A DNA stretch of 64,000 bases from a phage, in assembly GCA_012646185.1 (NCBI GenBank), contig GCA_012646185.1_4706.1. One strand, given 5' to 3'. Positions 3,253 to 63,964 of this stretch are shown piece after piece. The notes beneath the pieces are model-generated. The model worked only from the letters and a program-made list of their open reading frames with translations. It was not told the origin of the DNA and made no database searches. Within the stretch, counting starts at the first letter, position 1. Every line of letters starts with the position of its first letter. Position numbers and translations under genes: made by a program.

Positions 3253-3284
3253 CCCTCCTCCTTCCCTTACGGGTTGGAGGAGGG
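3253..3284. terminator. conserved terminator hairpin between convergent genes
   Basis: CCCTCCTCC-TT-CCC-TTAC-GGG-TT-GGAGGAGGG; U-rich tract follows on the minus-strand transcript. Confidence 0.7.
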
Positions 3285-3293
3285 CATATGCTG

Positions 3294-4199
3294 TTATGCT
3301 ACATATAACGTTAGATAACCATCGATGAGCGTATTCATCACACTGAGTTGGAGTACGACAGCTTTACTAACATCCGTACGTACACCGAACGGTAGTGTTT
3401 TGAATTGCTCTGGATCGGCTATTACTCTCGCGTTCTGCAAGTTGAGTGGTCCAGGCATTGACGACAATACCCAGCGATCGTTGACCATAAGGCCGTCGAT
3501 CTCTTCAGAGAGACCCAATTGCAGTGTGTTCATTTCTGCGATTAGTGCCTCCGATTGCGTATCGCCTGAGGTTAATGTGTACCCATCGGTAAGTGATGCC
3601 AGAACACCAGCAGATACGAACCAGTTGTACGAAACAATAGCGCCTGGGAGTTTACTGCTATCTCGATCGATGATATAATTCAACCCAGCCAACATATTGT
3701 TGCGAACGAGGTTGTTGAGGTCGTTATGTCCTGAGGTTAACTCAACAAGTAACTGACCAACCCATACTTGGTTACCAGGTTTAGGTGTTATCACAACCTG
3801 TATCGGTGACTTGGACTTATCCAGATCCGCGTCGACAATCTCGGTTTTGTTGAGAAGGATACCGTACGTCGATGCTAAGACAGGTAGGATCTCAGAGACC
3901 TTGGTTAATGCATCTAAGGTTTCGATCTCGATGGGCCAGTGGTGCTGTCCGCCAGGCCAAGTACCCAGTTTACCAAGATCGATGCGGTTATAATAGATGT
4001 CGACAGAGTTCACCAGCCCTGAACCCGGTTGGGGATGCACGGTTAACTTGCTGTTACGCTTGTACCCTGTGCTTTCAGAAGCCTCACCGATAACCAGTTT
4101 ATCCAGCGTTACGCCTCGAGCATCGAAATCGCTATGCTTTCGAATCAGCCGAAAGAGGATTTCTTTCGATTCTAACCCCAGGATTTCACTGTACTCCAT
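3294..4199 (-). CDS. hypothetical protein, paralog family A (301 aa)
   Basis: ATG at 4197-4199; shares IYYNRID, STYGILL and DRWVL motifs with the 5116 and 5978 genes. Confidence 0.85.
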   Translation of the reverse strand: MEYSEILGLESKEILFRLIRKHSDFDARGVTLDKLVIGEASESTGYKRNSKLTVHPQPGSGLVNSVDIYYNRIDLGKLGTWPGGQHHWPIEIETLDALTKVSEILPVLASTYGILLNKTEIVDADLDKSKSPIQVVITPKPGNQVWVGQLLVELTSGHNDLNNLVRNNMLAGLNYIIDRDSSKLPGAIVSYNWFVSAGVLASLTDGYTLTSGDTQSEALIAEMNTLQLGLSEEIDGLMVNDRWVLSSMPGPLNLQNARVIADPEQFKTLPFGVRTDVSKAVVLQLSVMNTLIDGYLTLYVA

Positions 4200-4214
4200 T
4201 TAACACCCCTTAGG

Positions 4215-5099
4215 TTACGGTAGGATTTCTGCGCCCGTCGGGCCTGCCTTACGAGCTTCCAACGCACCAAGGTCGTATTTCAGCGTCAGCGTATCGTTGG
4301 TGGTATAAAGGTTGTGGTAAGTCGAAATCAGATCGGTAACCTGCGCGCCGACGATTTCGTTCATGTCGAAGGCTGAACCTTGACCATCATCAGCACGAAC
4401 GATTTTATCGCCAGCAGAGACCATCCCAATTTCAGAAATAACCGCGTACTCTTCACCACCTTCGGTGAGTTTAGCTACATTGAGATATTCGTTAATATCC
4501 CACGGCGTCCAAACCAAAGAGACTTTACAGCTGTAGTCGTAGTACTCTCCGGTTGCTACCAGAATTCCGGTTGTTGGGATATCCGGTCGGGCAGGGTTGA
4601 GGTTCGCGTCGGTTGGGTGCCATTCGATGGTCTGAGCGACGCCGTCGACGTATTTGGTATAACGCATGGAGCGGACAACGTTATCGAAATCGATCCGGCG
4701 ACCGTAATAACAGATATACTTTTTACCGCTTTCCAGTGTCTCAATACGACGTAACCCAAATTTAGCGCGTTCGTCTGTGGTCAAATCGTTACCAACTTCA
4801 CGCATTACGAAAGGCTTGATTTTCCACGGTGAAAGATCGCTTGCTTCGTGAGCGATCGGCATCGAGGAAGGGATACCGTTAGCGTTGCGGATGAATTCAT
4901 GACCTTGGTTGCCGATACAGAAGTAACGTACAGCAGGATTACCCTCGGGGTAAACCTTTGATTGAATCTGAAGTTTTTCATTCAAGGTGCTGTGTTCTTC
5001 CCATGCATGAGGAAGACCGAGCGTAAGGTTAGTTTGTACTTGACCGCCGATAATCGTACGGACGATACGATCGGTAGCACGGATTTGTGTAGAAGCCAT
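4215..5099 (-). CDS. hypothetical protein (294 aa), possible distant member of paralog family A
   Basis: ATG at 5097-5099; contains YYGRRIDFD resembling the family YYxRI motif. Confidence 0.8.
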   Translation of the reverse strand: MASTQIRATDRIVRTIIGGQVQTNLTLGLPHAWEEHSTLNEKLQIQSKVYPEGNPAVRYFCIGNQGHEFIRNANGIPSSMPIAHEASDLSPWKIKPFVMREVGNDLTTDERAKFGLRRIETLESGKKYICYYGRRIDFDNVVRSMRYTKYVDGVAQTIEWHPTDANLNPARPDIPTTGILVATGEYYDYSCKVSLVWTPWDINEYLNVAKLTEGGEEYAVISEIGMVSAGDKIVRADDGQGSAFDMNEIVGAQVTDLISTYHNLYTTNDTLTLKYDLGALEARKAGPTGAEILP

Positions 5100-5115
5100 G
5101 TCTTTTCCTATTTAA

Positions 5116-5967
5116 TCAGTTATATTGCATCAACAGGATACCGCCGTAGTTCGTGCAGTAATCTTGGCTAAGCGTAACGATAACAGCGTTAGCGAACGCA
5201 GGGTTAACCGGATAACCCTGTGCGATAAGTTCTGTTGTTTTACCGGTTGCAAGCACGGTGGCTCCGTAAAGGTTGTTTTCGTCTTCACGGCCGTTATAAA
5301 CCCATGGGGTTGGCGCAACGTTGTTGAATAAGCTAACCATTGCGCTTAAATTACCGCCAACTTTTAACCCGGCGAGATCGGAACGGATAGCCGTACAGTC
5401 TATAGCGTAACTGTAGACCAGTGCCTGGATACGATTTGCGGTGTAGTACGGGAAATTGAGGCCGGTCATCACCGTGGACTTCATCATCCCCGCAACATCG
5501 TGGGCACTATCGAGGAGATAGAACGTAACACTTCCCGTCCAAGCCAATCCGGTTGTTTTCAACTCTACGGTGTGAGGGAACGGATATTCATCACCTCGTA
5601 CAATCGGAGAATCGACGCAGCTATCCTGATCGATAACGATTCCGTACGTTGATTGAATCAGAGGGATAAGATCGTGCGTCGTTTTAACCCCAGCATCGAT
5701 AGCAAGCTTCGGTTCCATTCCCAAGAAGAAGTCTTGGATAGGGATACGATCGTACCACACGTAGCTGCTTTCACGGTATTGTGCTGGTGTTACTGTTGCC
5801 GAAGGTGATACCTTAGCGCGTGTGTTCCGTTTATACGCGTGGTTTCCGTTTTCAGCAACATCCGTGATATCAAGTGCATCGAAGTTAAAGTCGAAGTCAG
5901 GATTGGCTGCCTGAATAAGTTCAGCGACCAGTACTTTAGGACTTTTGTTTAACAATTTCTGACTCAT
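5116..5967 (-). CDS. hypothetical protein, paralog family A (283 aa)
   Basis: ATG at 5965-5967 with AAGGAA ribosome-binding site; motifs VWYDRIP, STYGIVID, LAWTGSV, DYCTNYGGILLMQYN. Confidence 0.85.
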   Translation of the reverse strand: MSQKLLNKSPKVLVAELIQAANPDFDFNFDALDITDVAENGNHAYKRNTRAKVSPSATVTPAQYRESSYVWYDRIPIQDFFLGMEPKLAIDAGVKTTHDLIPLIQSTYGIVIDQDSCVDSPIVRGDEYPFPHTVELKTTGLAWTGSVTFYLLDSAHDVAGMMKSTVMTGLNFPYYTANRIQALVYSYAIDCTAIRSDLAGLKVGGNLSAMVSLFNNVAPTPWVYNGREDENNLYGATVLATGKTTELIAQGYPVNPAFANAVIVTLSQDYCTNYGGILLMQYN

Positions 5968-5977
5968 TGTTTATTCC

Positions 5978-9411: not shown

Positions 9412-12321
9412 ATGAACGATATAAATAAAGGGCGCGTCGCCCTCGAACGTCAAATGAGCAATAATGACGTTGCGAAGGCACTCATGAACAAATTTGTCGC
9501 TCCTGCTCCGCAGTCACGTCTTTATAATACACGTGATGCGGAAGGAGCGAACGGTCGTTTCGGGTTAGTTGTTCCCGACCAAATGACGATGAACACGGTT
9601 ACGCGTGCGACCGCGACAAACATCGAGGATAATAAAAACATCCTCGAGTTGTTCCCTGAACTTAAACGCGTGATGCAGATCTATGTTGCCGCGTTGACGA
9701 ACCCTAACGATCTTAAGACGGTCGAGATGTTTATCGACAGCGAAGATTTCCCCGGCAGAGTCGCAGAAATCGTTCAGCCGATGATCGATACCATCGACAC
9801 GCATTTTAAGAATATCTATAAAATAAAGACGCTTATCCCTCGTATCATCGAAGACGTCTTCTTTATCAAGGGCAGTTATAACTTCGTTGTTCTGCCAGAA
9901 AGCACGCTCGACCGCGCGATTAATGGTAACGGTCAACTGAAACTTGAAGAATACGGATTTAAAGACAACCATTTTGCAAGTTGGGGGCTTCTAGGTAACG
10001 ACAGTCGCAAACGCCACGAAAATCAATTACCCGCGACGGTTTCGATGGAAGATTATTTCTCGGGTGTTAATGAAACCATACCGTACGATCCTGTTGTTCG
10101 CATAGACAGCATTAAGTTTACCAATACCCTGCTTCGCGATAAGGACGGTAAATTCATTGAAGCGAAGATCGATATTCCGGATATGGTTACGGTTGTCGAT
10201 AACCCAGACATCCTCCGCATGCCCATTCTGCATCAACGTCGAGCAGCGACAGCAGTGCAGCGTGCGTTACGCGCAAACACGTTAGGAGGTAGTGGTTTGG
10301 TAACGCTGTCAGGCGATCCGACCCTAACCGCTAACCGACGCGAGCTAACGCAAGAACAGGTTAACGAGATCTGGAATAAGCTCAACATCCAACGTCACAC
10401 TAAGGTATCTCCCGTTTACGCGTTGGCGACTCCAGATACGCTTGATCGTCAAAGCGTCGGTCATCCTGGTGTGATGCACGTACCACCTGAGGCATTAGAA
10501 CCCGTACATGCGCCCGGTGATCCTGAGAACCATATCGGGTATTTGGTTCAGTTGGATGAGTTTGGTTATCCGGTGCGTTTGGTTGAAGATGCTGCATATT
10601 ACAAGCAGTTGGAAGGTCGGTTGTCGAAGATCACTGCAGATATCGCAGGCACGTCAAGCAACGGCATGGCGAGCGAGATGATTGGTGCGGCCAAGAACAT
10701 GATCCAAGGTACGTCATGTAATCAGGTAGACATGTCGGCCTTCGTATCGTCGTACGAATCGCTGATGCAACGTTACATCGTTGAACGTATTGTCAACGGT
10801 TATCTTGGCAGTGCGGTGGAGATCGGTGCGACATCATCGTTTTACCTATCGATGCTTGCCCGTAGCCTCGCTCACAAGCAGACCCGTGTTTTGTTTATTC
10901 CTCGAGAGATGGTGACTTACATCGCCTATGAATACAACAAATACGGTATCGGTCGTTCGCTGCTTGAAAGTACGAAGATGATCTCGTCGCAACGAGCCAT
11001 GCTCATGGTTCAAGAACTAATGGCGAAAATCAAAAGTTCGTTGAACTATACGACGTTAAGCGTAATGCTTGAAGACACCGACAGAAACCCGGTCGATACC
11101 GTCGAACAAGCACTGCATAGTTTCGCTCGTGTCTACCAGTCTGGTTTCCCGTTGGGTGAAACTAACCCGATGGATATCATCAACGCGTACGAACGAAGCT
11201 CGATTCGATTGAAGGTTGAGGGGAATAACCCACGCTTCCCGAAATTGAATACAGACGTCAGCGTTGAGCAGCGTAACTATCAGTCTCCTGATAATGAGCT
11301 GATGGATCGTTACCGTCGTGACCATTTCATGGGCTTGGGTGTGTCTCCGGAGATTATCGATACTTCCTACCAATCTGAATTCGCAGCTTCTGTGATTACA
11401 GCTAACGCGATGCAAGAGAAACAGTTCACGGTTTGTCGTGAGGTGATCACGAATGGATTATCGGACCACATCAAGAAATATACGGCATACAGTCCCGTGT
11501 TGTTGACGTCGTTACGAAACACGGTTCGTGCGAACATGTCTAAGCTCTCCCAGGCACAATTGAAGCAGCTTTTTGGTAGCGATTTCGAAAACGGTGTTAT
11601 CCGTAACGTTAACGCCTATCAGGAGATTGACGACCAATCAGCAACAATGGATCTGGATTACACTAAACCAGAAGTCCAGGAAGTTATTGCCGATGCTTAT
11701 GTGTCCATGTTCTTAAACAGCCTGCGTGTGCGTTTACCAGATAGCAATGCTCGTCGCCTTGAAGATCAGGTACGTGAATATAATCAGTACAAGGAAGCGA
11801 TTACTGCGCAACTTGATGATTATTTAACGCCTGATTACGTCATGGGTCTGGGTGGGGTTGATGAAACAACGCTGCAGATGATCCGCGCATGCATTATTGG
11901 TACCGCGATGCGTACGTGGGCAAAAGAGAACAACTTCAATCAGGAGCTGGCTGATCTCTTCAGTCTTGACGATAAGAAGAATGCCGTGCAAGATTGGAAA
12001 CGTATGTCCATGGAACATATTGAAGTCATGGGTAAATGCATGGGTGATTTTGCATTGTATATTCAGAATCTGACGAAGAAGATTGAAGAGAAGATGGGAG
12101 CTCAAGCACAGGACGGCAGCGTTTCATCTGACGGTTCGTGGTCATCCGATTCAAGTAGCGATACCGGTTCTTCTGATGACTTCGGTGGCGGTGACGATTT
12201 CGGAGATACTGATTTCGATACCGAAACGATGGAGGAAACCTCAACAGAAGAAACAACCACATCTGAGGATACGACGACCGACACAACGTCAGAAGACGAT
12301 ACTTCAGGTGGCGTTGTCTAA
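9412..12321 (+). CDS. large virion-type protein (969 aa) with acidic S/T/D-rich C-terminal tail; possibly portal (weak guess)
   Basis: ATG with AAGGAG ribosome-binding site 9 nt upstream; C-terminal ~70 aa low-complexity acidic tail; A-run and terminator hairpin downstream. Confidence 0.8.
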   Translation: MNDINKGRVALERQMSNNDVAKALMNKFVAPAPQSRLYNTRDAEGANGRFGLVVPDQMTMNTVTRATATNIEDNKNILELFPELKRVMQIYVAALTNPNDLKTVEMFIDSEDFPGRVAEIVQPMIDTIDTHFKNIYKIKTLIPRIIEDVFFIKGSYNFVVLPESTLDRAINGNGQLKLEEYGFKDNHFASWGLLGNDSRKRHENQLPATVSMEDYFSGVNETIPYDPVVRIDSIKFTNTLLRDKDGKFIEAKIDIPDMVTVVDNPDILRMPILHQRRAATAVQRALRANTLGGSGLVTLSGDPTLTANRRELTQEQVNEIWNKLNIQRHTKVSPVYALATPDTLDRQSVGHPGVMHVPPEALEPVHAPGDPENHIGYLVQLDEFGYPVRLVEDAAYYKQLEGRLSKITADIAGTSSNGMASEMIGAAKNMIQGTSCNQVDMSAFVSSYESLMQRYIVERIVNGYLGSAVEIGATSSFYLSMLARSLAHKQTRVLFIPREMVTYIAYEYNKYGIGRSLLESTKMISSQRAMLMVQELMAKIKSSLNYTTLSVMLEDTDRNPVDTVEQALHSFARVYQSGFPLGETNPMDIINAYERSSIRLKVEGNNPRFPKLNTDVSVEQRNYQSPDNELMDRYRRDHFMGLGVSPEIIDTSYQSEFAASVITANAMQEKQFTVCREVITNGLSDHIKKYTAYSPVLLTSLRNTVRANMSKLSQAQLKQLFGSDFENGVIRNVNAYQEIDDQSATMDLDYTKPEVQEVIADAYVSMFLNSLRVRLPDSNARRLEDQVREYNQYKEAITAQLDDYLTPDYVMGLGGVDETTLQMIRACIIGTAMRTWAKENNFNQELADLFSLDDKKNAVQDWKRMSMEHIEVMGKCMGDFALYIQNLTKKIEEKMGAQAQDGSVSSDGSWSSDSSSDTGSSDDFGGGDDFGDTDFDTETMEETSTEETTTSEDTTTDTTSEDDTSGGVV

Positions 12322-12355: not shown

Positions 12356-12389
12356 CCTTCTCCCCTTCCCTTACGGGTTGGGGAGAAGG
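12356..12389. terminator. conserved terminator hairpin
   Basis: CCTTCTCCCC-TT-CCC-TTAC-GGG-TT-GGGGAGAAGG; A12 run at ~12330-12341 gives a U-run after the hairpin on minus-strand transcripts. Confidence 0.75.
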
Positions 12390-12406: not shown

Positions 12407-12682
12407 TTATCTCGAGGTTAACCACGATTCAATTGTGGTGAGGTTGCTTCGCAATACGCGCCAACTAGGGTGTGGTGGGATCACAGCACCTTGGTCGATT
12501 ACGGTTAGCTGAGCCTGGTACTTCTGTTTCATACGGGCTACCGTAGCGTTTACCGAAAGGAAAAGCTGGTAACGTTCGTACGCCGTCAGTACAGCATCCA
12601 TTTGGATTGCTTCGGTTGCTAAAACGATTTCGCGTAAGTCCTTTGCGTCCATCGGGACAGTAATGAGTTTATAATGACTCAT
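12407..12682 (-). CDS. hypothetical small protein (91 aa)
   Basis: ATG at 12680-12682 with AAGGAA ribosome-binding site; terminator immediately downstream. Confidence 0.7.
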   Translation of the reverse strand: MSHYKLITVPMDAKDLREIVLATEAIQMDAVLTAYERYQLFLSVNATVARMKQKYQAQLTVIDQGAVIPPHPSWRVLRSNLTTIESWLTSR

Positions 12683-18784: not shown

Positions 18785-18814
18785 CCTCCCCCAACCCTTA
18801 CGGGCTGAGGGAGG
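18785..18814 (-). terminator. terminator hairpin downstream of major capsid gene
   Basis: CCTCCC...CCC-TTAC-GGG...GGGAGG; U-rich run follows on minus-strand RNA (plus 18750-18765). Confidence 0.65.
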
Positions 18815-23582: not shown

Positions 23583-23614
23583 CCCTCCTCCAACCCGTAA
23601 GGGAAGGAGGAGGG
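23583..23614. terminator. conserved terminator hairpin between convergent genes
   Basis: CCCTCCTCC-AA-CCC-GTAA-GGG-AA-GGAGGAGGG preceded by A10 (U10 after hairpin on minus strand). Confidence 0.8.
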
Positions 23615-23630: not shown

Positions 23631-23957
23631 TTAACTTATTGTCATGAATTCATTAGGTGAAAATTTCCAGCCGTTCTCAGTGAGAAGCGTGTTGAGTTTC
23701 GCTGCAACGATAAGCCATGCATGCATGGCTGTTACATCGTATTGGCGATTCACTCGACGTTGGTTTTCGATATTGATTTGCTCCTGTTCAGTGATGTTTG
23801 GATAAAGTGCGATAGCGCTAGGTTTACCCAGCGCGCTAGTCATCACCGCCGTACATTCACTGATAATGTTGTTTAAGTGGTAGTTATACACCGTTCCACG
23901 CATGACGCGATGACGGCATTCGATAATAGCGTCGTAAATGATTTCTCGAGTAATCAT
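23631..23957 (-). CDS. hypothetical small protein (108 aa)
   Basis: ATG at 23955-23957; terminator downstream. Confidence 0.75.
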   Translation of the reverse strand: MITREIIYDAIIECRHRVMRGTVYNYHLNNIISECTAVMTSALGKPSAIALYPNITEQEQINIENQRRVNRQYDVTAMHAWLIVAAKLNTLLTENGWKFSPNEFMTIS

Positions 23958-25299: not shown

Positions 25300-25303
25300 A
25301 ATA

Positions 25304-47490: not shown

Positions 47491-47522
47491 CCCTCCTCCA
47501 ACCCGTCAGGGAAGGAGGAGGG
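47491..47522. terminator. conserved terminator hairpin between convergent genes
   Basis: CCCTCCTCC-AA-CCC-GTCA-GGG-AA-GGAGGAGGG. Confidence 0.75.
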
Positions 47523-47531: not shown

Positions 47532-50500
47532 TTATCTTACGTTATTGCTGTTCTGCTGTTCGCTGAACCAACCGTACACCTTGAGATCGGTACCGTATTT
47601 CAATGCGATATACGCATTCAGTGCGGCACAGAACAAAGACGCGAATGCCCATATCAGCGAAGGATCAACATCTTCCGTTACCACCGGGAGAGTATTATCC
47701 GGTTCCCATGATGGAGAACTGTCCATGAACGTCGTGACCATTACTCGCCGTTGTTCTTCGGTGGTAAAGTCGCTATGAGGTTCCAACGCTTCTTTTGCCA
47801 GACGTCGATATTCGAACATATGCGTTGCTAAAGCCGATGAGTTACCAGATTCGCCTTCATAGTTCGGATCCACCGCATAACAGAGTTCTGTTGAATCTAA
47901 CAAAGCAACCGCCTGTGTGATGCTGTCGGCAGTGCCTGCACCATAGAGTTCGATAGACCGCGAAAGCTTCTCACAGAACGCATCCAACGCGGCAGGATTG
48001 GACACCTGAAGGTCAAGGCCTAATGTCCACGGATAGTTACTGAATACACCCGTAAACCGCGGCATAACACCCAACAGATGTTGTCCGATTACAGCACGGT
48101 TATAAACAGCCCGGTTATAGACTTGAAACGCAGCCTCCAAAGCTTGGTTATAATGACGACGAAGTTCGTCACGAGAGTTGCGGAACCTGTTTGCCGCAAG
48201 ACTCGTGGCTGCGACGCTACAAACATCGTAATTGGTGGACGAGAGCACAGTTTCGTTAAGATCGAACGCTTCCTGTTTCAACGATCCGCTAACCGCTGCT
48301 GCTTCGCTGTTTGCTTTATCGACAACAGTACTCAAAGCGTTGATGTAACGTTTAGCTCGGACTTCCAGCCATTGTGCGATGCCGAGAACATCCACAGCGG
48401 CTTTAGCAAGGTCACGCGCGTTCACGATTTCGTTCTTCAAGGCACCCAACCCTTTATTCTCAGGCGAAGAGGCTTGTTGACGAATCATGCTGTTTAACAT
48501 GGTAAGCAGATTATCCAACTCGTGCCCACTGACCTTGTTACGCGCATCGGTAATCGGCCCTTGCAGGAATTTACGGCAACCATCGTTGTATCGAATCAGT
48601 TTATCCACATCGATAGATTCGTTCGTGGATTCCTTGAACTGATCCTTCAATTCTTCACGGTAGTCATGGATTTCACTTGCGAGATTATCGATAGTGATAC
48701 CATCATGTCCAAGAAGAACTTTATTGAAGTTACCTTTCTCGAATGCCAGAGCAAGACCTTCACGAATCTTAGCGAGTTTATCCTGATCAAGTTCACGACC
48801 GTTCGATAGCTCTTTCACTTCCGAGCTGATTAATGCCGAAACGTTACCCAGATTGTCGGTAACCCCTTTGAACGCTCCCGACCAGATCGTTCCTGCTTCA
48901 GCGTATTTCGCAATGGTCTGAATACCGACGGTGTGCAGCGACGCTAAACGTTTCTTCGTGCCTTCGGTAAGCAGAGCGTCTTTAGCTCGCGTAAGCTGGC
49001 TGTTATTAGCTTCCGCCTGCTGAATCGCTGCTTTCGCACTTCCATTACGCCAGCTCTTAACCAGCCAATCAACCAAACGTTTTAGGATGTTGACGGTATA
49101 TTCCATCGTCCGCCGTAACGTTTCCCACGCGCTTTCTGCGGTATAGATGCCGTACCCTTCCATCTTCAACGCTTTCAAGCTTGTTTGACGTGCCAGCCAT
49201 TCTACCGTTGCGGAACAAACGTTTACAAAGGCTTCCAGGTAGGTGTAATAGACGTCTGTTGCCGACGTTTCGTTGAACTTTGAATGCAGATAGAACTGAT
49301 CGTAAAGTTCGTCGTCATCGCCGAAGGCATCATAGTTCCACAGTTCTGTATCACAACCTGTACCGCAGAAGACGTCAGCTGTCGTAAACTCTTTAAGCGC
49401 TTTAGCTGCATCATTCGTCAGGAATTTACCCGTTTCGACTACATCGTCGACATTAAGCTTGGGGAGTTCGTCGGTGACTGGCTCTTCCAACATCAGCATA
49501 TTGAAGAATGTGCTGTACTTGTATCCGAGCCATTTTGGATAACTGCTTTCAGGGATCGTAGACAACGGCTTGATTTTCTTGGCTTCAGCCAATGTGTCTT
49601 TTGCGACCTGATATTGGTTTTCCCCAGCCTTGACGCGACGTAATGCTTTTTCTTCCAACTGCTTAAGCTTGGCATGGCGTGCTTGTGCTGGAGCTTCAAC
49701 AAGTTTTTGTACTGACCGCATTGCAGAAATCGCTTCTTTTAATACGATCATCGGCATACGAACTTTGCCGTCGTCGAAACTAAGAGCGCGAGCGACACGT
49801 TTACTTACGACAGGCTTATCATGGATATTTCGTTCCACCCATGATTTGTTTGCGTAAGTTTGAGCGATCTGCTGTTGGATATTTTCAAGGTATTTCCAGC
49901 CGTTGGAAGCTTTGTTATCCAGAAGCGGATTCGGTCCCTTCTTATCGAAAAGTTTCAGAATCGGACCAAAGAAACCTTCCTGTACGAGTTCGATACGCGT
50001 GTATCCGTCAGCCGCTTCGATTTCTTCTTGGGTTTTGTCCCAGAGCTGTTCACTACGGACAGCAGTAGCTGTTTCAGATACCGACATAACAAGCTCGGCA
50101 ACAACTTCAGCACAGGTCAGTACGGTACGCACGCATTGCACTAGCATACGCTGGTAAACGATACGTGCGTTTTGTAGACGTGCGATAACCGCTAAATAAC
50201 CGATATTGTCAAGACGTTCGTCGGCTTGAGCAGAGTCGACACGTTCTATCAGTTGTTTAACCAGCGCGGCTGTTTCCGGATAATCGTTCACGACGTCACG
50301 CATAATTCGTGATGCGAAAACCGCGGTACCTAAAACGTTAAGAAGTGTTTTACCGTCCCATTCTTTTGGTGTCGCTACCGATTCGGTAGGGATGAGATTT
50401 CCCGCTTGATCGAAGTATGGCATAAGGACATTGATATCCGTAGACGGTACTGCGGTGATTGCGTTGTACTCTTCATCCGCACCATCGTTGCCAGACGGCT

Positions 50501-51137
50501 GTAATGCAAGTGCTTGTTCAAGGATTTTGCGGTCAACAGCATAAAGCGCCGACAGAGCCTGTGTTACCGCAACCAGATCAACGATCGGCGACCAGAGCTG
50601 TGCGAGCTTACCTTCGTATTTCTGTACAGCGATAGCAAGGTCTTCTTTTACGTCAGGATGATTGATTAAACCACCCAGCGCTTCATGGATTGCAGAAAAA
50701 CGTTCAGAATGTGCTTGAGTTAATGCAACAAAATCGTCAACGTACGATGCATTTTCTTCAAGGCGTGCAAGTTCCTGCTCCAGAAGATCTTTTACTTGCG
50801 TGGCGGATGCGTTTCTCAGCTGTTCCCCGATAATCGCGATGGCTTTATCGACAACACGACAAGCTTCATTGAAGCCTGTCGTTGAAGGTAACTCGGTCCA
50901 TAATGCCAGCGGCTTACCTTCCATTGCGTCAGGAAGGGAATATGACAACATTGCTAGTTGTTGACGTGATACCTGTTTGTCACGATGTAACGTTTCTTTC
51001 AACGCCAGAAGCTCATCAAGACCCACACTGCTAGGGATCGTGGGATGTGATACGGCGTTGATATTTTCTGTCAATGACTCAAGAACCAATAAACCATTTT
51101 CAGCGGAAGATAACCCTGCTTTAAGGTATTTGTTCAT
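47532..51137 (-). CDS. giant protein (1201 aa); shares ELVQEGF-type motif with the 930-aa and family B proteins
   Basis: ATG at 51135-51137 with ACGGAG ribosome-binding site. Confidence 0.85.
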   Translation of the reverse strand: MNKYLKAGLSSAENGLLVLESLTENINAVSHPTIPSSVGLDELLALKETLHRDKQVSRQQLAMLSYSLPDAMEGKPLALWTELPSTTGFNEACRVVDKAIAIIGEQLRNASATQVKDLLEQELARLEENASYVDDFVALTQAHSERFSAIHEALGGLINHPDVKEDLAIAVQKYEGKLAQLWSPIVDLVAVTQALSALYAVDRKILEQALALQPSGNDGADEEYNAITAVPSTDINVLMPYFDQAGNLIPTESVATPKEWDGKTLLNVLGTAVFASRIMRDVVNDYPETAALVKQLIERVDSAQADERLDNIGYLAVIARLQNARIVYQRMLVQCVRTVLTCAEVVAELVMSVSETATAVRSEQLWDKTQEEIEAADGYTRIELVQEGFFGPILKLFDKKGPNPLLDNKASNGWKYLENIQQQIAQTYANKSWVERNIHDKPVVSKRVARALSFDDGKVRMPMIVLKEAISAMRSVQKLVEAPAQARHAKLKQLEEKALRRVKAGENQYQVAKDTLAEAKKIKPLSTIPESSYPKWLGYKYSTFFNMLMLEEPVTDELPKLNVDDVVETGKFLTNDAAKALKEFTTADVFCGTGCDTELWNYDAFGDDDELYDQFYLHSKFNETSATDVYYTYLEAFVNVCSATVEWLARQTSLKALKMEGYGIYTAESAWETLRRTMEYTVNILKRLVDWLVKSWRNGSAKAAIQQAEANNSQLTRAKDALLTEGTKKRLASLHTVGIQTIAKYAEAGTIWSGAFKGVTDNLGNVSALISSEVKELSNGRELDQDKLAKIREGLALAFEKGNFNKVLLGHDGITIDNLASEIHDYREELKDQFKESTNESIDVDKLIRYNDGCRKFLQGPITDARNKVSGHELDNLLTMLNSMIRQQASSPENKGLGALKNEIVNARDLAKAAVDVLGIAQWLEVRAKRYINALSTVVDKANSEAAAVSGSLKQEAFDLNETVLSSTNYDVCSVAATSLAANRFRNSRDELRRHYNQALEAAFQVYNRAVYNRAVIGQHLLGVMPRFTGVFSNYPWTLGLDLQVSNPAALDAFCEKLSRSIELYGAGTADSITQAVALLDSTELCYAVDPNYEGESGNSSALATHMFEYRRLAKEALEPHSDFTTEEQRRVMVTTFMDSSPSWEPDNTLPVVTEDVDPSLIWAFASLFCAALNAYIALKYGTDLKVYGWFSEQQNSNNVR

Positions 51138-51152: not shown

Positions 51153-51183
51153 CCTAGGTGGAGGCCAATAACCTCCACCTAGG
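51153..51183 (-). terminator. distinct near-perfect hairpin CCTAGGTGGAGG-ccaataa-CCTCCACCTAGG
   Basis: 12-bp stem between the stop of the 930-aa gene and the start of the 1201-aa gene; terminator, attenuator or processing site. Confidence 0.5.
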
Positions 51184-56013: not shown

Positions 56014-57513
56014 ATGAGCGAACAAGAACGAAAACCTAAGAAGAAACTGCTCGGTATTCAATGTCGACACATCAGCTATAACGAAGCGAACGACGGCAGC
56101 AAGAACGACCTCATGATCGCAAAAGAGATCATGTTCTTTGATGACAATACGCAAGCGACGAACCTTCGCTTCTTTGAGAATTACAAACGTCCGTTTTGGG
56201 TGACGGTAGAGAGTAAACGTAAGAACAAATATAAAAAGGAAAGCGAGAAGCTCTCGCATGTGCGTCGCTATGATGTCCGCCAAAGTGAACTGGTTGAAAA
56301 GATCAGTTCGGTGCTTTATAAAAGACGTGCTGACGATAACACCCGTTTACAGCAGCTTGCACGGAGTCCATACCTCTACGGCACGGACGTTAGCGCCAGC
56401 TGTTATTTAAAAACCCAGTACAACACAAAATGGCCGGAATACGTCGATAAATTACCCGCTTCCATTGCCTGTTTCGATATCGAAACCGACGTTGTCCATG
56501 GACATGGTAAGATCGTTTGTATGTCTATTACAATGGGATACAATGCGATACTTTGCTATACCAAGGACTTCGTTGGTCATATTCCGAATGCGATTGAGAA
56601 AACCCATGAGAAGATTCGATATTACCTGGCCGAACGTCTGAATACCAAAGAAGATCCTCATGCGTTCGAAAAATATCAGTACGATGTGCGAATCGTAGAA
56701 AGTCCGGCACAAGCAGTCATCCAATGCATGCAGAAGGTTCACGAATGGCAGCCGGATTATCTCCTTGGCTGGAATATCGCGTTCGATATTCCGCGCATGC
56801 TCCAGGCACTGAACGAGGAAGGGTATCGTCCCGAGGATGTTTTCTCCGATCCTCGTGTACCCCCTAAGTATCGTATTGCTCGCTGGGTACCACCGAAGAC
56901 CGACAAGGTATCTGCTTCAGGCCGTAAAACCAACCTTACCCTCGAGCAGACCTGGCCGATGTTTTATACGATGGCTACGTATCAGGTTATGGATGCGATG
57001 TGTGGTTATAAGTTCGTTCGTTTAGGAAGACCGGATGAGGGACGCTATTCACTCGATGCGGTGTTAGAGCGTAATAAATGCCATACGAAATTAAAAGCGA
57101 TTCCTGGTACAGAAGGGTTCACGGAGCTCGCCTGGCACGAAGAGATGCAAACGAACCATCAAATCGACTACGGCGTATATAACCTTTGGGATAACCAAGG
57201 TATTGAGGCGTTGGACCAGAAAACAAAAGACTATTCGATGACCATCCCGATTCGTTTAGCGGCGTCGGATTTGAAAGATTTCAGTTCCAACCCTAAACGT
57301 ATCTGCGATAAACTTTTCTTCGTGTATCTTAACCGTGGGGAAGTCATGGGATGCACCGCCGACGACATGACCCAGGAAGAAGATAAGTGGGTTATCTCAC
57401 GAACCGGACATATCGTCACATTACCATGCGATCTCATGGCGGACAACGGCATTCATCTCTTCTGGGATATGCCTAATTTAAGGAGCTATATTCGATTATT
57501 TGTTGCGGATTAA
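56014..57513 (+). CDS. family-B DNA polymerase, N-terminal/3'-5' exonuclease part (5' exon plus read-through to in-intron stop)
   Basis: Exo I FDIETD, Exo II GWNIAFDIP, Exo III YNLWD in T4-like order and spacing; no polymerase motifs A/B/C; ORF ends at the start of the intron region. Confidence 0.75.
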   Translation: MSEQERKPKKKLLGIQCRHISYNEANDGSKNDLMIAKEIMFFDDNTQATNLRFFENYKRPFWVTVESKRKNKYKKESEKLSHVRRYDVRQSELVEKISSVLYKRRADDNTRLQQLARSPYLYGTDVSASCYLKTQYNTKWPEYVDKLPASIACFDIETDVVHGHGKIVCMSITMGYNAILCYTKDFVGHIPNAIEKTHEKIRYYLAERLNTKEDPHAFEKYQYDVRIVESPAQAVIQCMQKVHEWQPDYLLGWNIAFDIPRMLQALNEEGYRPEDVFSDPRVPPKYRIARWVPPKTDKVSASGRKTNLTLEQTWPMFYTMATYQVMDAMCGYKFVRLGRPDEGRYSLDAVLERNKCHTKLKAIPGTEGFTELAWHEEMQTNHQIDYGVYNLWDNQGIEALDQKTKDYSMTIPIRLAASDLKDFSSNPKRICDKLFFVYLNRGEVMGCTADDMTQEEDKWVISRTGHIVTLPCDLMADNGIHLFWDMPNLRSYIRLFVAD

Positions 57514-57606: not shown

Positions 57607-58743
57607 ATGTTGGAACATCTTGAACATTTAGACAATGAATACTTAAATTTCACCAATCGTCGTTATCGTATCTTCGAAGACGGTACACTTTACGATTACA
57701 AAGAGAATTGTAAAGTACCTGTTATAATAGAAGATAACAACTCTTACGTTATTATCGATTGGTATCGTGGGGTTGGTAAATACGAATTGGGGATGATCAT
57801 GCTTACAGCATTTGATCGCATCCACATTCCTAACTATCTTTACGATGAAATTGAATCGTTGTTTATTGATAACGACCCGACGAACTTTTCGTATAGTAAC
57901 CACATCTATCGTTTCCGTAATGGACCGCTGGCTGTGGAAGGGTATCCGGGATATTACTACATCCCGTTTGCCACGTACTATGCGCTAAATGAACAAGGTG
58001 AATGTTTAAGTCTTTTGTCTGGGGAAGGTATAACGTGGACAATGACGCAGCAAAACGGTACGCGGCGTCCCGGCTATCGATACAGAAAGGTAACACCTGA
58101 TAGCGGTTTTACGGCTCAGCTGTATCGTCATCGAGCGATGATGTTGACGTTTCGTCGTTACGACGCAAGCGTTGTGGAAATGACCGTTAATCACAAGAAC
58201 GGTATTAAAGGCGATGATTGGCTGGATAACCTGGAATGGGCAACCTACAAGGAAAACAACAATCATGCGCGTATAAACGGTTTATGTGACGGCAAAGCGA
58301 AACCTATCAAGATCTTTGATTATAATCGTCATACCGAACGTCATTTCAAGAGCATCGCTGAGGCGGAACGTGCGTATCCACACGTAGCAAAAGGACGTTT
58401 CAAATGGTGGGTTGAAAATCCACCGAAACGTATACCTGAATGTAACCTCTACATCAAACATGCGTTCGATAATACTCCGTGGCCTGAATGGAAACTGGGT
58501 GATGAACGACGTATTGAAGATGTAGCGGGTATTCCGATTATCGCCCTTAACATGGTTACAGGCGAGAAACGAGTGTATTCATCGGTTACAGCTGCGGGTA
58601 AGGATACGAAAACAAGTTGGATAACAGTACGACGTCACTGTGATAAGCGTGTCGTTCCTGTTAAACAAGCATGGTGTTTCCGTTATGCTGACGACGTCAA
58701 AAACATGCCTGAGTTAACTTCCCTACCAACAATCGAACAGTAA
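57607..58743 (+). CDS. HNH homing endonuclease (378 aa)
   Basis: ATG start; motif VNHKNGIKGDDWLDNLEWATYKENNNHA (His-Asn-His); located inside the intron. Confidence 0.8.
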   Translation: MLEHLEHLDNEYLNFTNRRYRIFEDGTLYDYKENCKVPVIIEDNNSYVIIDWYRGVGKYELGMIMLTAFDRIHIPNYLYDEIESLFIDNDPTNFSYSNHIYRFRNGPLAVEGYPGYYYIPFATYYALNEQGECLSLLSGEGITWTMTQQNGTRRPGYRYRKVTPDSGFTAQLYRHRAMMLTFRRYDASVVEMTVNHKNGIKGDDWLDNLEWATYKENNNHARINGLCDGKAKPIKIFDYNRHTERHFKSIAEAERAYPHVAKGRFKWWVENPPKRIPECNLYIKHAFDNTPWPEWKLGDERRIEDVAGIPIIALNMVTGEKRVYSSVTAAGKDTKTSWITVRRHCDKRVVPVKQAWCFRYADDVKNMPELTSLPTIEQ

Positions 58744-59470: not shown

Positions 59471-59519
59471 TTCAAGTAGGTTGATCCTCGTTTAACAAAA
59501 AAGAAAACACATGCGAAGC

Positions 59520-59549
59520 TCCTCCCCCTGGCGGAAGCCGGAGGGAGGG
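59520..59549. terminator. hairpin with GGAA loop, terminator between convergent genes
   Basis: CTCCTCCCCCTGGC-GGAA-GCCGGAGGGAGGG with one mismatch; U-rich on the minus side. Confidence 0.6.
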
Positions 59550-59556
59550 GTGAGGT

Positions 59557-60042
59557 TTATGCGCGTTCGTTACCAACCGTTACTTTGTAGTCAGCGTCGG
59601 TTAAGAATATAGACAGGAATCCATGTTCTTTGCAAATCTGACTAAGGATGTCAGCAATGATTTCGTTGATCATCGGCTTGTTTGCAAGGGCATAGATGTA
59701 CCCGGGTGTAAAAGAAAGTGCGTGATTGATCATAGGCTCATGAGAAGCCAAGATAAGGATCACGTGATGCTTCCCATCGTCGGTAACGACCGCTTGCGTA
59801 GACACGAAGAAATCAGTGAAGCAGCAGCGATCACAGGCTTTAGGTATATACAAGTCACCCAGAGCTTCGTTACGTGCTTTTACGTGTGTTTCAGGGGTGA
59901 TGCTGCTAAGTTGATCTTCAGCGAGATCCAAGACATCCTCAATCGTTTTAAGAATAGCGTTGCGGAAATCCTCACGGTAGAATGGGATGATATCACGATC
60001 GTTCATGTAATCGCCGGATTCGATAGTAAAGTTGATGTTCAT
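59557..60042 (-). CDS. hypothetical protein (161 aa)
   Basis: ATG at 60040-60042. Confidence 0.8.
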   Translation of the reverse strand: MNINFTIESGDYMNDRDIIPFYREDFRNAILKTIEDVLDLAEDQLSSITPETHVKARNEALGDLYIPKACDRCCFTDFFVSTQAVVTDDGKHHVILILASHEPMINHALSFTPGYIYALANKPMINEIIADILSQICKEHGFLSIFLTDADYKVTVGNERA

Positions 60043-60633: not shown

Positions 60634-60669
60634 AGCCCTTCCCCGGCCTTGGTGGCTAGGGAAGGGGCT
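60634..60669 (-). terminator. hairpin AGCCCTTCCCC...GGGAAGGGGCT
   Basis: Between the stop of the 60681 gene and the start of the 60153 gene; one bulge. Confidence 0.5.
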
Positions 60670-60680: not shown

Positions 60681-61079
60681 TTATGCTTCGCAATCAGCTG
60701 AAGGCGTCGCGCCTTTCTTACCGGCGATACGCCAAATCCGACACGCTGGGTAATGGTTAACCTCTAGAGAGCAAGGAATGTTATATTTCTCTTCCAGCGC
60801 ATAAAGACATTTCGTTAGCTGCTCCAGCGCGTTCTCGTCGTGTCGTAACGCGTGGTGGCCTAATCGATGTTGGTCGTTCTTTATATACGCCTCGAAGAGA
60901 ACATGTTGGCGATGTACGCTGACGTTTACAGCCTCGAGTATAGCTTGGTCGAGCATACGACTAAAGCACATCAACGAGTCAGATACGTTTTCTCGCTTAA
61001 CCAGATCGATCATGGCGGGAATATACGAATGGTCGATGTTATCGATGACCGCTTTAGCGACGGAATCAGCAACGTTCAT
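60681..61079 (-). CDS. hypothetical protein, small paralog pair C (132 aa)
   Basis: ATG at 61077-61079; shares KAVxDNIDH, MIDxxKxE, EEKYNIPxSLEVN with the 61115 gene. Confidence 0.8.
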   Translation of the reverse strand: MNVADSVAKAVIDNIDHSYIPAMIDLVKRENVSDSLMCFSRMLDQAILEAVNVSVHRQHVLFEAYIKNDQHRLGHHALRHDENALEQLTKCLYALEEKYNIPCSLEVNHYPACRIWRIAGKKGATPSADCEA

Positions 61080-62669: not shown

Positions 62670-63272
62670 TTACATGCTTTCTAACATATCGATGATCATG
62701 GAACCCATACCGAAACTCGGTCTTTCACCGATGTACTCAGCAAGCTGGCGATGGACGTCTTTTGGATTTCCTTCTTCACCATCGGCATCGATGTAGACCG
62801 AAAAAGAAAATGAATCGGAATCCACGCTGATAACCAGACGACGTTCATTGCGTTCCTTGAGCGTGTCGACGATAGCTGCTTTCAGTACTGCGATCGCGTT
62901 CATCGCGTGCAAGATATCTCCATCGGGTTTCGGCAGATCGATCTTTTCTTTCAGGTCGATATTGATGTTGGTTACAATTGGGTTGAGGTCGACCTTGACG
63001 TAATCGTTAGGGTACATGCGAATAATCGCACGATCGATATCTGAACCGTAAAAGTCAACACGTGGCTTTAACACTTCTTTGTTTGGATCCATGTTTTCAT
63101 CCATACCCGCCTGCAAGAAACGTTCTACGTTATCCAGTTCACGATAAACTGACGCTTCGATTTCTTTCAGATAGTTGGCTGCGGTTTCATGTTCTTTACG
63201 CAGCTCGTCTTTAAGGAGCTGTACGGTGACTTCACTGGAACGAATGCTGTTCGCGAATTGGGTAATTGACAT
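62670..63272 (-). CDS. hypothetical protein (~200 aa), start moved to ATG at 63270-63272
   Basis: Track start TTG at 63302; ATG at 63272 has AAGGAA ribosome-binding site 6 nt upstream. Confidence 0.75.
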   Translation of the reverse strand: MSITQFANSIRSSEVTVQLLKDELRKEHETAANYLKEIEASVYRELDNVERFLQAGMDENMDPNKEVLKPRVDFYGSDIDRAIIRMYPNDYVKVDLNPIVTNINIDLKEKIDLPKPDGDILHAMNAIAVLKAAIVDTLKERNERRLVISVDSDSFSFSVYIDADGEEGNPKDVHRQLAEYIGERPSFGMGSMIIDMLESM

Positions 63273-63327
63273 ATCGAATTCCTTAAATTCTCTTGAGTTC
63301 AATTAATGATGAAAAGCTGTAAAAAAA

Positions 63328-63345
63328 GGTGGGGCGAACCCCACC
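63328..63345 (-). terminator. intrinsic terminator GGTGGGG-CGAA-CCCCACC with U7 tract on minus strand
   Basis: A7 on plus strand immediately 5' of the hairpin; downstream of the 63371 gene. Confidence 0.8.
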
Positions 63346-63370
63346 AAAACGTCAGACACACGCAGGAAAA

Positions 63371-63796
63371 TTAATTCAGTGACGCATATAACGCATAACG
63401 ACTGTAGATCTCAACCGCCGGTCCGTTATGCGTTAACAGACCATCCCGGTTGTAATACTGGAAAAATGAATAACGTTTGTCGAAGTGATAAACAAAAGCA
63501 ATGTCTTTGCTGCCAAGACCTGTGATGCGTGGTCTGTTTTTATCTAACAGCGCTTTGACTTTTAACAGTGTTGCCGCACGTGCTTTAACGTTAGGGATTA
63601 ATCCATCACAATCGATATAAACTGTGTAACCTGTTTCAGATGTTGCGACGGTCGTATTGCGATTGACGCGGAAGATTTTTGTTTCGTATGTACTATCTTC
63701 AAGAATTGGGTTTTGTTTTTCGTATTTTCGTTTACGCAGAAATTCTACAACGGTGATATAGTTAGCGGTAATATGCCCGGTTATAGCTTGTAACAT
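63371..63796 (-). CDS. hypothetical protein (141 aa)
   Basis: ATG at 63794-63796 with AAAGGA ribosome-binding site; conserved upstream element. Confidence 0.8.
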   Translation of the reverse strand: MLQAITGHITANYITVVEFLRKRKYEKQNPILEDSTYETKIFRVNRNTTVATSETGYTVYIDCDGLIPNVKARAATLLKVKALLDKNRPRITGLGSKDIAFVYHFDKRYSFFQYYNRDGLLTHNGPAVEIYSRYALYASLN

Positions 63797-63860
63797 CTTG
63801 ACATCCTTTTATATTGGATTGGTTGCAATTGTCTTAAATAGATGATAAGATATTTTGCTC

Positions 63861-63924
63861 TTATCACTAAGGTAATGTAGTCGTGAAATAAACTGCGTTA
63901 ACACGAAATAAAAACAGCATAGAA
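63861..63924 (-). promoter_or_regulatory. conserved ~60-nt element, candidate phage promoter
   Basis: About 85% identical to 25205-25267; about 70 nt upstream of the 63796 start. Confidence 0.35.
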
Positions 63925-63964
63925 CCCTCCTCCCACATCCTTCAAGAGGACGGTGGGAAGAGGG
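63925..63964 (-). terminator. conserved-type hairpin CCCTCCTCCCAC...GTGGGAAGAGGG
   Basis: One mismatch; the gene it terminates lies beyond the window end. Confidence 0.5.

Follow-up and report, generated by a model that had tools for sequence, protein, structure and literature searches.

The window analyzed here is a 64,000-nucleotide stretch of phage DNA that shares 94% identity with Escherichia phage Goslar, a nucleus-forming jumbo phage, and its source is a close relative of Goslar. The genes annotated in Goslar include split homologues of RNA polymerase beta and beta-prime as well as phiKZ-like genes. Judged by this annotation, the window derives from a jumbo phage that forms a nucleus and encodes multisubunit RNA polymerases of its own. 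A preliminary description had listed a family of intergenic hairpins, and it was found that their coordinates are correct and that the hairpins far exceed chance. The pattern CCYTCYYCC-NN-CCC-NNNN-GGG-NN-GGRRGARGG, with one mismatch or fewer, is matched 6 times in the window and never in 100 dinucleotide shuffles, while an unbiased scan for stems of at least 8 bp revealed 37 inverted repeats, as compared with 15.4 ± 3.6 in shuffles. The elements are listed below; bit scores refer to a covariance model built from the hairpin family itself.

3253..3284, no strand assigned: canonical two-tier palindromic hairpin at the convergent junction 1962..3242(+) / 3294..4199(-); TATG on both strands; 59.7 bits.
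12356..12389, no strand assigned: canonical hairpin whose outer stem has 10 bp, at the convergent junction 9412..12321(+) / 12407..12682(-); both strands carry TATG; 59.2 bits.
18785..18814, minus strand: degenerate copy, 99 nt 3′ of the major capsid gene 18914..21136(-) and followed by TTTCTATGCCGT; 17.8 bits.
23583..23614, no strand assigned: canonical hairpin at the convergent junction 21946..23556(+) / 23631..23957(-); TATG on the plus side only; 63.8 bits.
25268..25299, minus strand: canonical hairpin 4 nt past the stop of 25304..26671(-); minus flank TTCTATGCTGTC; 65.9 bits.
30572..30593, minus strand: simple phiKZ-type hairpin, AGCCCGCCC-UUCG-GGGUGGGCU then TTATGCTGT, 15 nt past the stop of 30609..33995(-).
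36510..36541, minus strand: canonical hairpin 10 nt past the stop of 36552..37841(-); minus flank TTTTATGACG; 66.5 bits.
39216..39247, minus strand: canonical hairpin 22 nt past the stop of 39270..40592(-); minus flank TTCTATGCCG; 69.8 bits.
47491..47522, no strand assigned: canonical hairpin at the convergent junction 44476..47469(+) / 47532..51137(-); 71.5 bits.
51153..51183, minus strand: unrelated 12-bp perfect hairpin between two minus-strand genes; no TATG box.
59521..59550 (first placed at 59520), no strand assigned: variant at the convergent junction before 59557..60042(-), with C/T-rich outer arms and the inner module CTGGC-GGAA-GCCGG; on the plus strand, TTTATGCGCG lies 6 nt past the stem.
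60636..60666 (first placed at 60634), minus strand: second-subfamily variant CCCTTCCC-CGGCCTTGGTGGCTA-GGGAAGGG, 14 nt past the stop of 60681..61079(-); 20.2 bits.
63925..63964, minus strand: longer variant with C/T-rich arms, followed by TTCTATGCTGTT on the minus strand; 17.2 bits.

Seven copies (3253, 12356, 23583, 25268, 36510, 39216, and 47491) fit the canonical anatomy exactly, with a C/T-rich arm of 9-10 bp, a 2x2 AA or TT internal loop, CCC/GGG, and a tetraloop, and all score above 59 bits. The claim of at least eleven copies of nearly the same sequence holds for these seven but is overstated for the rest, since 18785, 59520, 60634, 63925, 30572, and 51153 differ from the canonical anatomy, being looser variants or, at 51153, unrelated. 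The 5′ arm is C/pyrimidine-rich and the 3′ arm G/purine-rich in the seven canonical copies as well as in 18785, 59521, 60636, and 63925. The copy at 60636 combines C/T-rich outer arms with the inner module of a second subfamily, CGGCCTTGGTGGCTA / TAGCCGTCAAGGCCG. Goslar has this module in both orientations, at 11186, 84366, and 200229. The flanking CATA and TATG exist as had been described, but their symmetry does not extend to every copy: TATG lies on the transcribed (minus) side only at 25268 (the plus side lacks it), 36510, and 63925, the element at 23583 has it on the plus side only, and 60636 has TATG only on the non-transcribed plus side.

When 21 copies were aligned, 99.2% of the cells were paired. 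Compensatory C-G to U-A changes were found in 6 of 12 pairs, with no one-sided changes and no G-U pairs, and none of 500 shuffles reached the covariation score. Throughout this covariation, the 5′ arm keeps its pyrimidines. The folding z-scores lie between -4.6 and -7.5. At 47491, the flanks GCATAA / AATATGC also pair and lengthen the stem, giving -31.9 and -33.1 kcal/mol on the two strands (z = -6.8 and -7.5).

The elements begin 4-34 nt past a stop codon (99 nt for the capsid gene), so that a GC-rich stem-loop lies just 3′ of the stop codon, as in Rho-independent terminators. All five convergent gene junctions in the window have a hairpin, and about 16 of 20 convergent junctions in Goslar have a palindromic one. 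At the one-way sites 18785 and 30572, the RNA of the transcribed strand is more stable by 10 and 5 kcal/mol, respectively, because of G-U pairs; at 18785, these pairs let the minus-strand RNA form an unbroken stem of 15 bp (-31.3 kcal/mol, versus -21.4 for the plus strand). Among 44 one-way gaps of Goslar, 29 have the more stable fold on the transcribed strand and 5 on the opposite strand. This asymmetry is partly compositional, as shuffled intergenic regions favor the transcribed strand by 1.6-2.5 kcal/mol, compared with 3.4 in the real ones.

Could the family be a repeat acting at the DNA level, either a REP/MITE-like mobile palindrome or a site for protein binding or cruciform formation, whose intergenic placement is incidental? 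There are many near-identical copies with strictly Watson-Crick palindromy (zero G-U pairs), and an indel hotspot adjoins one of them. Moreover, the palindrome center is inverted between close relatives at four sites; the center of 3253 (TT-CCC-TTAC-GGG-TT) is flipped relative to Goslar and two other relatives, and that of 12356 relative to Goslar. Thus, the arms recombine or switch template as DNA. However, the copies occupy the same orthologous positions in four genomes, and variable presence of the REP/MITE type was not found, the orthologous sites being occupied in all relatives compared. There are no target-site duplications, and similarity among the flanks ends about 10 nt outside the element. 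In addition, the positions of the copies follow the stop codons and the transcribed strand, and the degenerate copies keep their pairing via G-U on the transcribed strand only. A DNA-level repeat is a very improbable explanation.

The 3′ flank on the transcribed side reads (T)TATGC(C/T)GT. Of the 18 transcribed sides in the window, 14 have TATG within 8 nt past the stem; it is absent from the minus sides of 23583, 59521, and 60636, and the fourth side lacking it belongs to the unrelated 51153. In Goslar, where the flank consensus is (T)TATG-C-T/C-G-T, the one-way sites have a 3′ TATG in 15 of 26 cases and a 5′ CATA in 6 of 26, and 15 of the 19 intergenic TATGCYGT sequences lie directly 3′ of a hairpin. 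The flank TTATKYYGT of phiKZ-type terminators was found straight after the stem, while no run of U (T) was found there; the flanks CATATGCTG, AATATGCTG, TTCTATGC, and TTTTATGA have at most 2-4 consecutive T residues, and a bacterial-type polymerase would find a poor U tract in flanks such as AAUAUGCUG. Across genera, conservation applies to the 3′ box TATGC(C/T)GT rather than to the stem, again with no T run. Recognition by the RNA polymerase of the phage itself would fit this conservation. In phiKZ, on the other hand, a 5′ CATA is nearly as common as a 3′ TATG at one-way sites; therefore, the box may act as a lower stem and not as a single-stranded signal.

The G of TATG lies 5-7 nt past the stem at most copies in the window, and this distance is the usual RNA release register of intrinsic terminators. 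At one-way sites, the box is 0-190 nt upstream of the next gene. The box might alternatively be an initiator for the non-virion RNA polymerase, which would make the element a composite of a terminator and a late promoter, or a promoter-like pause. This possibility is compatible with termination but rather unlikely. The late promoter consensus of phiKZ is 5′-TATG-3′ with G at +1; it is needed for transcription in vitro but is insufficient for initiation by itself (PMC4666361). The non-template TATG sits in a pocket of the beta-like subunit GP123 (PMC12809450). A precedent exists in the PeSLs, composite terminator/promoter motifs of T4-like phages (PMC4122927), which are short intergenic stem-loops of conserved sequence that recur throughout a large phage genome (PMC4122927, PMC2839356), and the window copy adjoining an indel of extra genes in a relative adds to the likeness. 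PeSLs, however, have a recognizable host-type early promoter and lie in hyperplastic regions, whereas the sole promoter-like feature in the window is the 4-nt TATG and the copies lie in conserved blocks of structural genes. At convergent junctions, both boxes point antisense into the gene opposite, an arrangement that would be senseless for a promoter. In addition, no hairpin precedes the validated strong phiKZ promoter P119L, and no link between the terminator and the TATG promoter motifs was found in the papers available.

The same ATG invites a translational reading, in which the purine arm GGAGGAGGG and an ATG 4-7 nt further on would form a ribosome-binding site and a start codon masked by the anti-Shine-Dalgarno-like arm. 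The GGAGG-N4-7-ATG geometry does occur on both strands, and Goslar_00047 is annotated with a start at such an ATG. Nevertheless, the ORFs starting from hairpin ATGs are mostly 4-17 codons long, and several longer ones are antisense to real genes. Compared with Goslar, the annotated 62-codon ORF has 3 non-synonymous differences and no synonymous ones, and its reading frame is interrupted in a third genome. A translational role is very improbable.

The family closely resembles terminators known in related phages. In Pseudomonas phage phiKZ, 61 terminator regions were defined from ONT-cappable-seq 3′ ends, with the motif BCCYCCCCHWWDGGGRRGGBYTTATKYYGT (Putzeys et al. 2024, PMC10914365). Such elements in the relatives of the window phage are regarded as intrinsic terminators (PMC10914365). 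An example in phiKZ DNA is CATAGGCCCTCCCTTCGGGGAGGGCTTTATGTTGT, located 3′ of its capsid gene. The phiKZ motif has the same arm polarity (C/T-rich 5′, G/A-rich 3′), its TTATKYYGT corresponds to TTATGCTGT of the window, a 5′ CATA is often present, the sites follow stop codons or lie at convergent junctions, and the phage family encodes its own multisubunit RNA polymerases. The two designs differ in that the canonical window element is two-tiered (9-10 bp, an AA/AA or UU/UU loop, CCC/GGG, and a tetraloop; 32-34 nt), whereas that of phiKZ is a single 7-9 bp stem of about 18-22 nt. The literal 30-nt phiKZ motif (7-bp stem, 4-nt loop) was matched within 4 mismatches only by 30572 in the window and by 3 sites in Goslar.

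Terminator motifs A-E have been described in Pseudomonas phage 201phi2-1, of which motif A resembles the phiKZ motif; motifs A and B together give elongated stems, which were stronger in a reporter assay, and 15 terminators are bidirectional (PMC11512511). These elongated stems may resemble the two-tier hairpin of the window. Eight selected strong 201phi2-1 terminators were active in uninfected P. chlororaphis, that is, with the host RNA polymerase; the available text does not say which of them carry the phiKZ-like motif (PMC11512511). A hairpin followed by TATGCCGT was also found in Erwinia phage RAY and Xanthomonas phage Xoo-sp14, while the chimalliviruses SPN3US and PCH45 have ordinary T-run terminators instead. 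Bacterial bidirectional Rho-independent terminators are likewise palindromic GC-rich hairpins between convergent genes, with an A-rich 5′ flank complementing the U-rich 3′ flank, but they have a U tract, whereas the window elements have the conserved (T)TATGC(C/T)GT and no uninterrupted U tract. In the GenBank record of Goslar, several orthologous copies already carry the label "putative terminator" (e.g., 27746..27777).

Most likely, the hairpins are the Goslar-like version of the sequence-conserved terminators mapped in phiKZ and 201phi2-1. The term "terminators" in the preliminary description is well supported by position, orientation, and a design nearly identical to those mapped elements, and by analogy the hairpins are probably factor-independent terminators belonging to the conserved type of the nucleus-forming jumbo phages (Chimalliviridae). 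The finding of the hairpins is sound but largely known already, because terminators of this type have been mapped in phiKZ and 201phi2-1. As a possible mechanism, the nascent RNA would fold into a very stable hairpin (about -25 to -33 kcal/mol) in which 9-10 bp are followed by a 2x2 mismatch and then by 3 bp closed with a tetraloop, and the A/U-rich box (U)UAUGC(C/U)GU, 1-3 nt past the hairpin, would replace a long U run, with the polymerase released over the box. The polymerase for these late structural genes is presumably the phage non-virion RNA polymerase. The hairpin may stay on the RNA and protect its 3′ end. At convergent pairs, the perfect Watson-Crick palindrome would carry the box on both strands, so that one element could stop transcription from both directions.

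The preliminary description took the sequence conservation to suggest an element recognized by a protein or an RNase rather than a simple intrinsic terminator. An element of about 45 nt might indeed be a cleavage site of RNase III or a binding site of a phage protein, and thereby define or protect 3′ ends or mark RNAs for nuclear export. With paired flanks, the extended palindrome has 16 bp and two 2x2 internal loops, or about two helical turns, which is roughly the size of phage T7 RNase III sites. This extended form arises only where the flanks pair, for example at 47491 and not at 25268. The conservation covers the sequence and not the structure alone, and the mRNAs of these phages need export and are bound by the phage protein ChmC (PMC11077065). 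However, eCLIP of PhiPA3 ChmC gave no sequence motif, and its peaks lie near start codons rather than 3′ ends. The phiKZ counterparts have 7-9 bp stems, too short for RNase III, and the stem sequence varies between genera while the 3′ box is retained. Furthermore, selected 201phi2-1 terminators lower downstream expression in uninfected cells (PMC11512511). Nothing points to an RNase, and a processing or protein-bound element is an improbable explanation.

The perfect hairpin at 51153 is probably a terminator of another design, and its 7-nt loop is inverted in a relative. A true T-run terminator lies elsewhere in the window, at 63321-63345(-).

When an 8-kb sample of the window was compared with a phage collection, Escherichia phage vB_EcoM_Goslar was the sole match, with 94.2% identity over 79% of the sample. 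Goslar is a nucleus-forming jumbo phage of 237 kb, and its annotation includes structural genes like those of phiKZ and an RNA polymerase with split subunits. In the whole Goslar genome, each of the 247 coding sequences was verified to translate cleanly. The Goslar annotation was transferred to the open reading frames (ORFs) of the window. A pattern scan of IMG/VR viral contigs revealed two further Goslar-like genomes (237.5 kb and 182.9 kb), both non-identical to the window. The gene at 47532..51137 (-), which adjoins the hairpin at 47491, has 3,606 nt in the window versus 2,793 nt in Goslar_00064 (72031..74823). This variable gene, whose function is unknown, lies in a region that aligns only partly, as seen in the 79% coverage of the 8-kb sample.

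Is the hairpin family real, and how large is it? The pattern CCYTCYYCC-NN-CCC-NNNN-GGG-NN-GGRRGARGG, with one mismatch at most, has six matches in the window and none in 100 shuffles, while an unbiased scan for inverted repeats with a stem of at least 8 bp found 37 in the window versus 15.4 ± 3.6 in shuffles. Thus, the family is real, and the statistics are overwhelming. A covariance model was built on 21 aligned clean copies from the window and Goslar. In Goslar it found 15 copies above 50 bits and one more cut at the record start. In the window the hairpins, by start position, are as follows.

3253, 12356, 23583, 25268, 36510, 39216 and 47491: seven full copies, each above 59 bits
18785: weaker relative, 17.8 bits
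60634: weaker relative with a different inner module, 20.2 bits
63925: weaker and longer relative, 17.2 bits
59520: variant, without a report by the covariance model at E-values up to 10
30572: short simple hairpin
51153: unrelated hairpin

A hairpin exists at all 13 coordinates of the preliminary description, although the one at 51153 is of an unrelated design. The claim of eleven nearly identical members was right about the family, but by the covariance model near-identity is limited to the seven full copies and the rest are variants. An Rfam scan of the window returned no family at its gathering score.

The canonical hairpin is two-tiered, with a C/T-rich outer arm, a 2x2 AA or TT internal loop, an inner CCC/GGG stem and a tetraloop. 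When the centre is oriented as AA-CCC-NNNN-GGG-AA, the 15 central columns of the 21-copy alignment are invariant except for the loop. In this alignment, 99.2% of the cells of the 12 base pairs are paired. Two-sided changes were found in six pairs, always from C-G to U-A, and one-sided changes in none, so that pyrimidines are kept in the 5′ arm; no shuffle reached the observed covariation score. The RNAs fold with -24 to -33 kcal/mol (z-scores -4.6 to -7.5) from either strand, and the GCATAA...AATATGC flanks, where present, add a lower stem. There is no T run 3′ of the stem, and the flanks read CATATGCTG, AATATGCTG, TTCTATGC and TTTTATGA. A classical terminator, GGTGGGG-TTCG-CCCCACC followed by TTTTTTT, lies at 63321-63345 (-), and thus two terminator designs coexist in the same genome.

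The elements of the window start 4-34 nt past a stop codon, or 99 nt past it for the major capsid gene, and all five convergent junctions, where the end of a (+) gene faces the end of a (-) gene, have an element. In Goslar, a strong hairpin is present at 14 convergent junctions with a gap of 25-400 nt and at two more, one with a long gap and one that spans the ends of the record; the convergent junctions left over are mostly overlapping gene pairs. Nine of the 15 canonical Goslar copies are at convergent junctions. At one-way sites, where the gap is read on one strand only, degenerate copies tell the direction of transcription: the RNA of the transcribed strand is more stable than that of the opposite strand by 10 kcal/mol at 18785 and by 5 kcal/mol at 30572, because each G-U pair in one RNA corresponds to an A-C mismatch in the RNA of the opposite strand. 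In 44 one-way gaps of Goslar, the more stable strand was the transcribed one by 29 to 5, versus 4 to 5 at convergent junctions. This asymmetry must be discounted, since a bias of 1.6-2.5 kcal/mol towards the transcribed strand is also seen after shuffling of the intergenic sequence (versus 3.4 kcal/mol for real intergenic sequence), and as proof of selection at the RNA level it was only partly convincing.

It was revealed that very different stems have a 3′ sequence in common. The strong hairpins after Goslar stop codons are followed by the consensus (T)TATG-C-T/C-G-T and then by T-rich sequence. Of the window's 18 transcribed sides, 14 have a TATG that begins no more than 8 nt from the stem, as do 4 of the 8 non-transcribed sides; about 2% is expected from the density of TATG. 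At the one-way sites of Goslar, 15 of 26 hairpins have the 3′ TATG versus 6 of 26 with its mirror image, the 5′ CATA; each is frequent at convergent junctions (19/26 and 17/26, respectively). The CATA...TATG palindrome of the preliminary description thus comes down largely to a 3′ signal that is present twice, once per strand. The 3′ box TATGCYGT occurs 40 times in Goslar, 19 times in intergenic sequence (7% of the genome), and 15 of these 19 directly follow a hairpin.

The transcript ends of phiKZ have been mapped by ONT-cappable-seq, with six bidirectional terminator regions (Putzeys et al., PMC10914365). Direct reading of the phiKZ DNA gave GCCCTCCC-GCAA-TGGGAGGGC-TTATGCTGT, and CATAGGCCCTCCC-TTCG-GGGAGGGCTTTATGTTGT 3′ of the capsid gene; the arm polarity and the box are identical to those of the window hairpins. 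End mapping of 201phi2-1 yielded 132 ends. Its motif A (n = 59) is similar to that of phiKZ, the stem becomes longer where motifs co-occur, and bidirectional terminators number 15. When eight selected terminators were placed in uninfected P. chlororaphis, a two-reporter assay showed termination activity, with the longer-stemmed ones being stronger (PMC11512511). ARNold was used in the Goslar genome paper, and several copies, including the orthologue of 3253, are already a "putative transcriptional terminator" in the Goslar GenBank record. By analogy, the hairpin is a putative Goslarvirus member of a terminator type that phiKZ and 201phi2-1 have made known, with a longer two-tier stem and a pronounced two-way symmetry. 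In Erwinia phage RAY and Xanthomonas phage Xoo-sp14, a hairpin with TATGCCGT was also found close to the capsid genes, a place taken by ordinary T-run terminators in Salmonella phage SPN3US and Serratia phage PCH45. This comparison across distant genera shows the 3′ box TATGC(C/T)GT, not the stem, as the conserved part of the terminator. It is shared by Pseudomonas, Escherichia, Erwinia and Xanthomonas phages, and would make a polymerase-specific termination signal directly testable.

About 85 IMG/VR contigs (within L007-L113), many apparently marine (e.g. L011, L013, L049), have an A run followed by CCCC-AA-CCC-NNNN-GGG-AA-GGGG, which on the opposite strand is a two-tier hairpin with a UU mismatch followed by a T run. 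They were rejected as Goslar relatives, having zero proteins in common with Goslar. The two-tier design thus recurs among phages without this protein kinship, as part of ordinary T-run terminators. Four contigs without Goslar protein homology (L012, L016, L066 and L086) have GGC-CTCC-TT-CCC-N4-GGG-TT-GGAG-GCC followed by GTTTTTATGCTGC, which combines the two-tier design with a TTATGCTG-like box beyond the Goslar group.

The terminator reading is well supported by stop-codon placement, by strand logic and by a design shared with the mapped phiKZ and 201phi2-1 terminators, and by this analogy a factor-independent terminator is the best-supported interpretation. The hairpin would fold in the nascent RNA, and the polymerase would be let go over the A/U-rich box a few bases past it. 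At convergent gene pairs a strictly Watson-Crick palindrome would terminate transcription in both directions, which would explain why G-U pairs are not tolerated there. On the late structural genes, this role would fall to the phage non-virion RNA polymerase inside the phage nucleus, a compartment that Rho and other host factors are believed not to enter. The hairpins may thus serve as a putative terminator map for Goslar-like phages, the E. coli model of phage-nucleus biology, delimiting the transcription units of the structural-gene region, and the strong two-way copies may be useful as insulators in E. coli.

Intrinsic terminators release RNA about 5-7 nt past the stem, and at most window copies the G of TATG is at this same distance of 5-7 nt. 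TATG is the phiKZ late-promoter consensus with G as +1 (PMC4666361), and on the non-template strand it is bound by the non-virion RNA polymerase to start late transcription (PMC12809450). Because the box contains TATG with its G at the release position, a pause specific to this polymerase is conceivable, and so is a cassette of terminator and promoter such as the PeSLs of T4-like phages (PMC4122927). The recognition by a protein or RNase suggested in the preliminary description, in place of simple intrinsic termination, would be best framed around this conserved box. It is an improbable idea that the elongating polymerase re-captures its own initiator TATG 5-7 nt past the hairpin, in a promoter-like pause replacing the U tract, and that at one-way sites the box might in addition set off a new round of transcription, into the next gene. 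If true, a single 4-nt signal would serve both ends of the transcription cycle in several genera of nucleus-forming phages. Against a promoter role, both boxes at convergent junctions point into a gene in antisense. P119L, a strong promoter of phiKZ, lacks an upstream hairpin, for which reason the hairpin was also rejected as a late-promoter part. A purely single-stranded role of the box is disfavoured as well: even the one-way sites of phiKZ have the 5′ CATA almost as often as the 3′ TATG, and the two may simply pair.

Other roles were assessed beside that of a factor-independent terminator. A ribosome-binding site with start codon (purine arm plus ATG) was rejected, since the resulting ORFs are mostly of 4-17 codons and the sole annotated one is not conserved. 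This is Goslar_00047 (window 25075..25263 (-), 62 codons), which starts at the ATG of the TATG box; its window and Goslar versions differ at 3 non-synonymous and 0 synonymous positions, its frame is broken in a third genome, and it is probably an artefact of the terminator's ATG rather than a gene. A ChmC binding site was also rejected: in PhiPA3, eCLIP of ChmC gave no motif, and binding was near start codons (PMC11077065). This was the only dataset relevant to recognition of the element by RNase III or a protein. Mobile elements are an unlikely origin, because the sites are orthologous in all four Goslar-like genomes and share no flanks.

Among these four genomes the 24 stem bases are unchanged. 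The tetraloops are more variable: of seven orthologous sites compared between the window and Goslar, five have a different one. At 3253 and 12356 of the window, the central 14 nt are exactly reverse-complemented between close relatives with the flanks unmoved. The same exact inversion was found in the 23583 orthologue of one relative (L060, IMGVR_UViG_3300045988_173921; 8884-8943), and the 7-nt loop of 51153 is likewise exactly reverse-complemented between close relatives. Inverted centres between fixed flanks suggest that the arms recombine or template-switch as DNA, and point to such events being frequent. The orientation of the centre is free at the convergent junctions 3253, 12356 and 23583 and in the one-way gap at 51153. 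In L060, about 3 kb of extra ORFs (10424-13472, orthologous to window ~25100-25304) lie on both sides of the 25268 orthologue, comprising three paralogues of 148, 286 and 263 aa and one ORF of 243 aa. This indel hotspot at a terminator is reminiscent of PeSL-mediated shuffling in T4-like phages.

A full-length, sub-threshold match to the group I intron family RF00028 (42.5 bits versus a gathering score of 50, E = 1e-8) was found directly 3′ of an endonuclease ORF.

56014..57513: DNA polymerase exonuclease-domain ORF
57607..58743: HNH/NUMOD1-type endonuclease ORF
58705-59196 (+): RF00028 match

The match is probably an intron with a homing endonuclease that splits the polymerase gene, which would explain the 813-nt gap without a called gene at 58744-59556.
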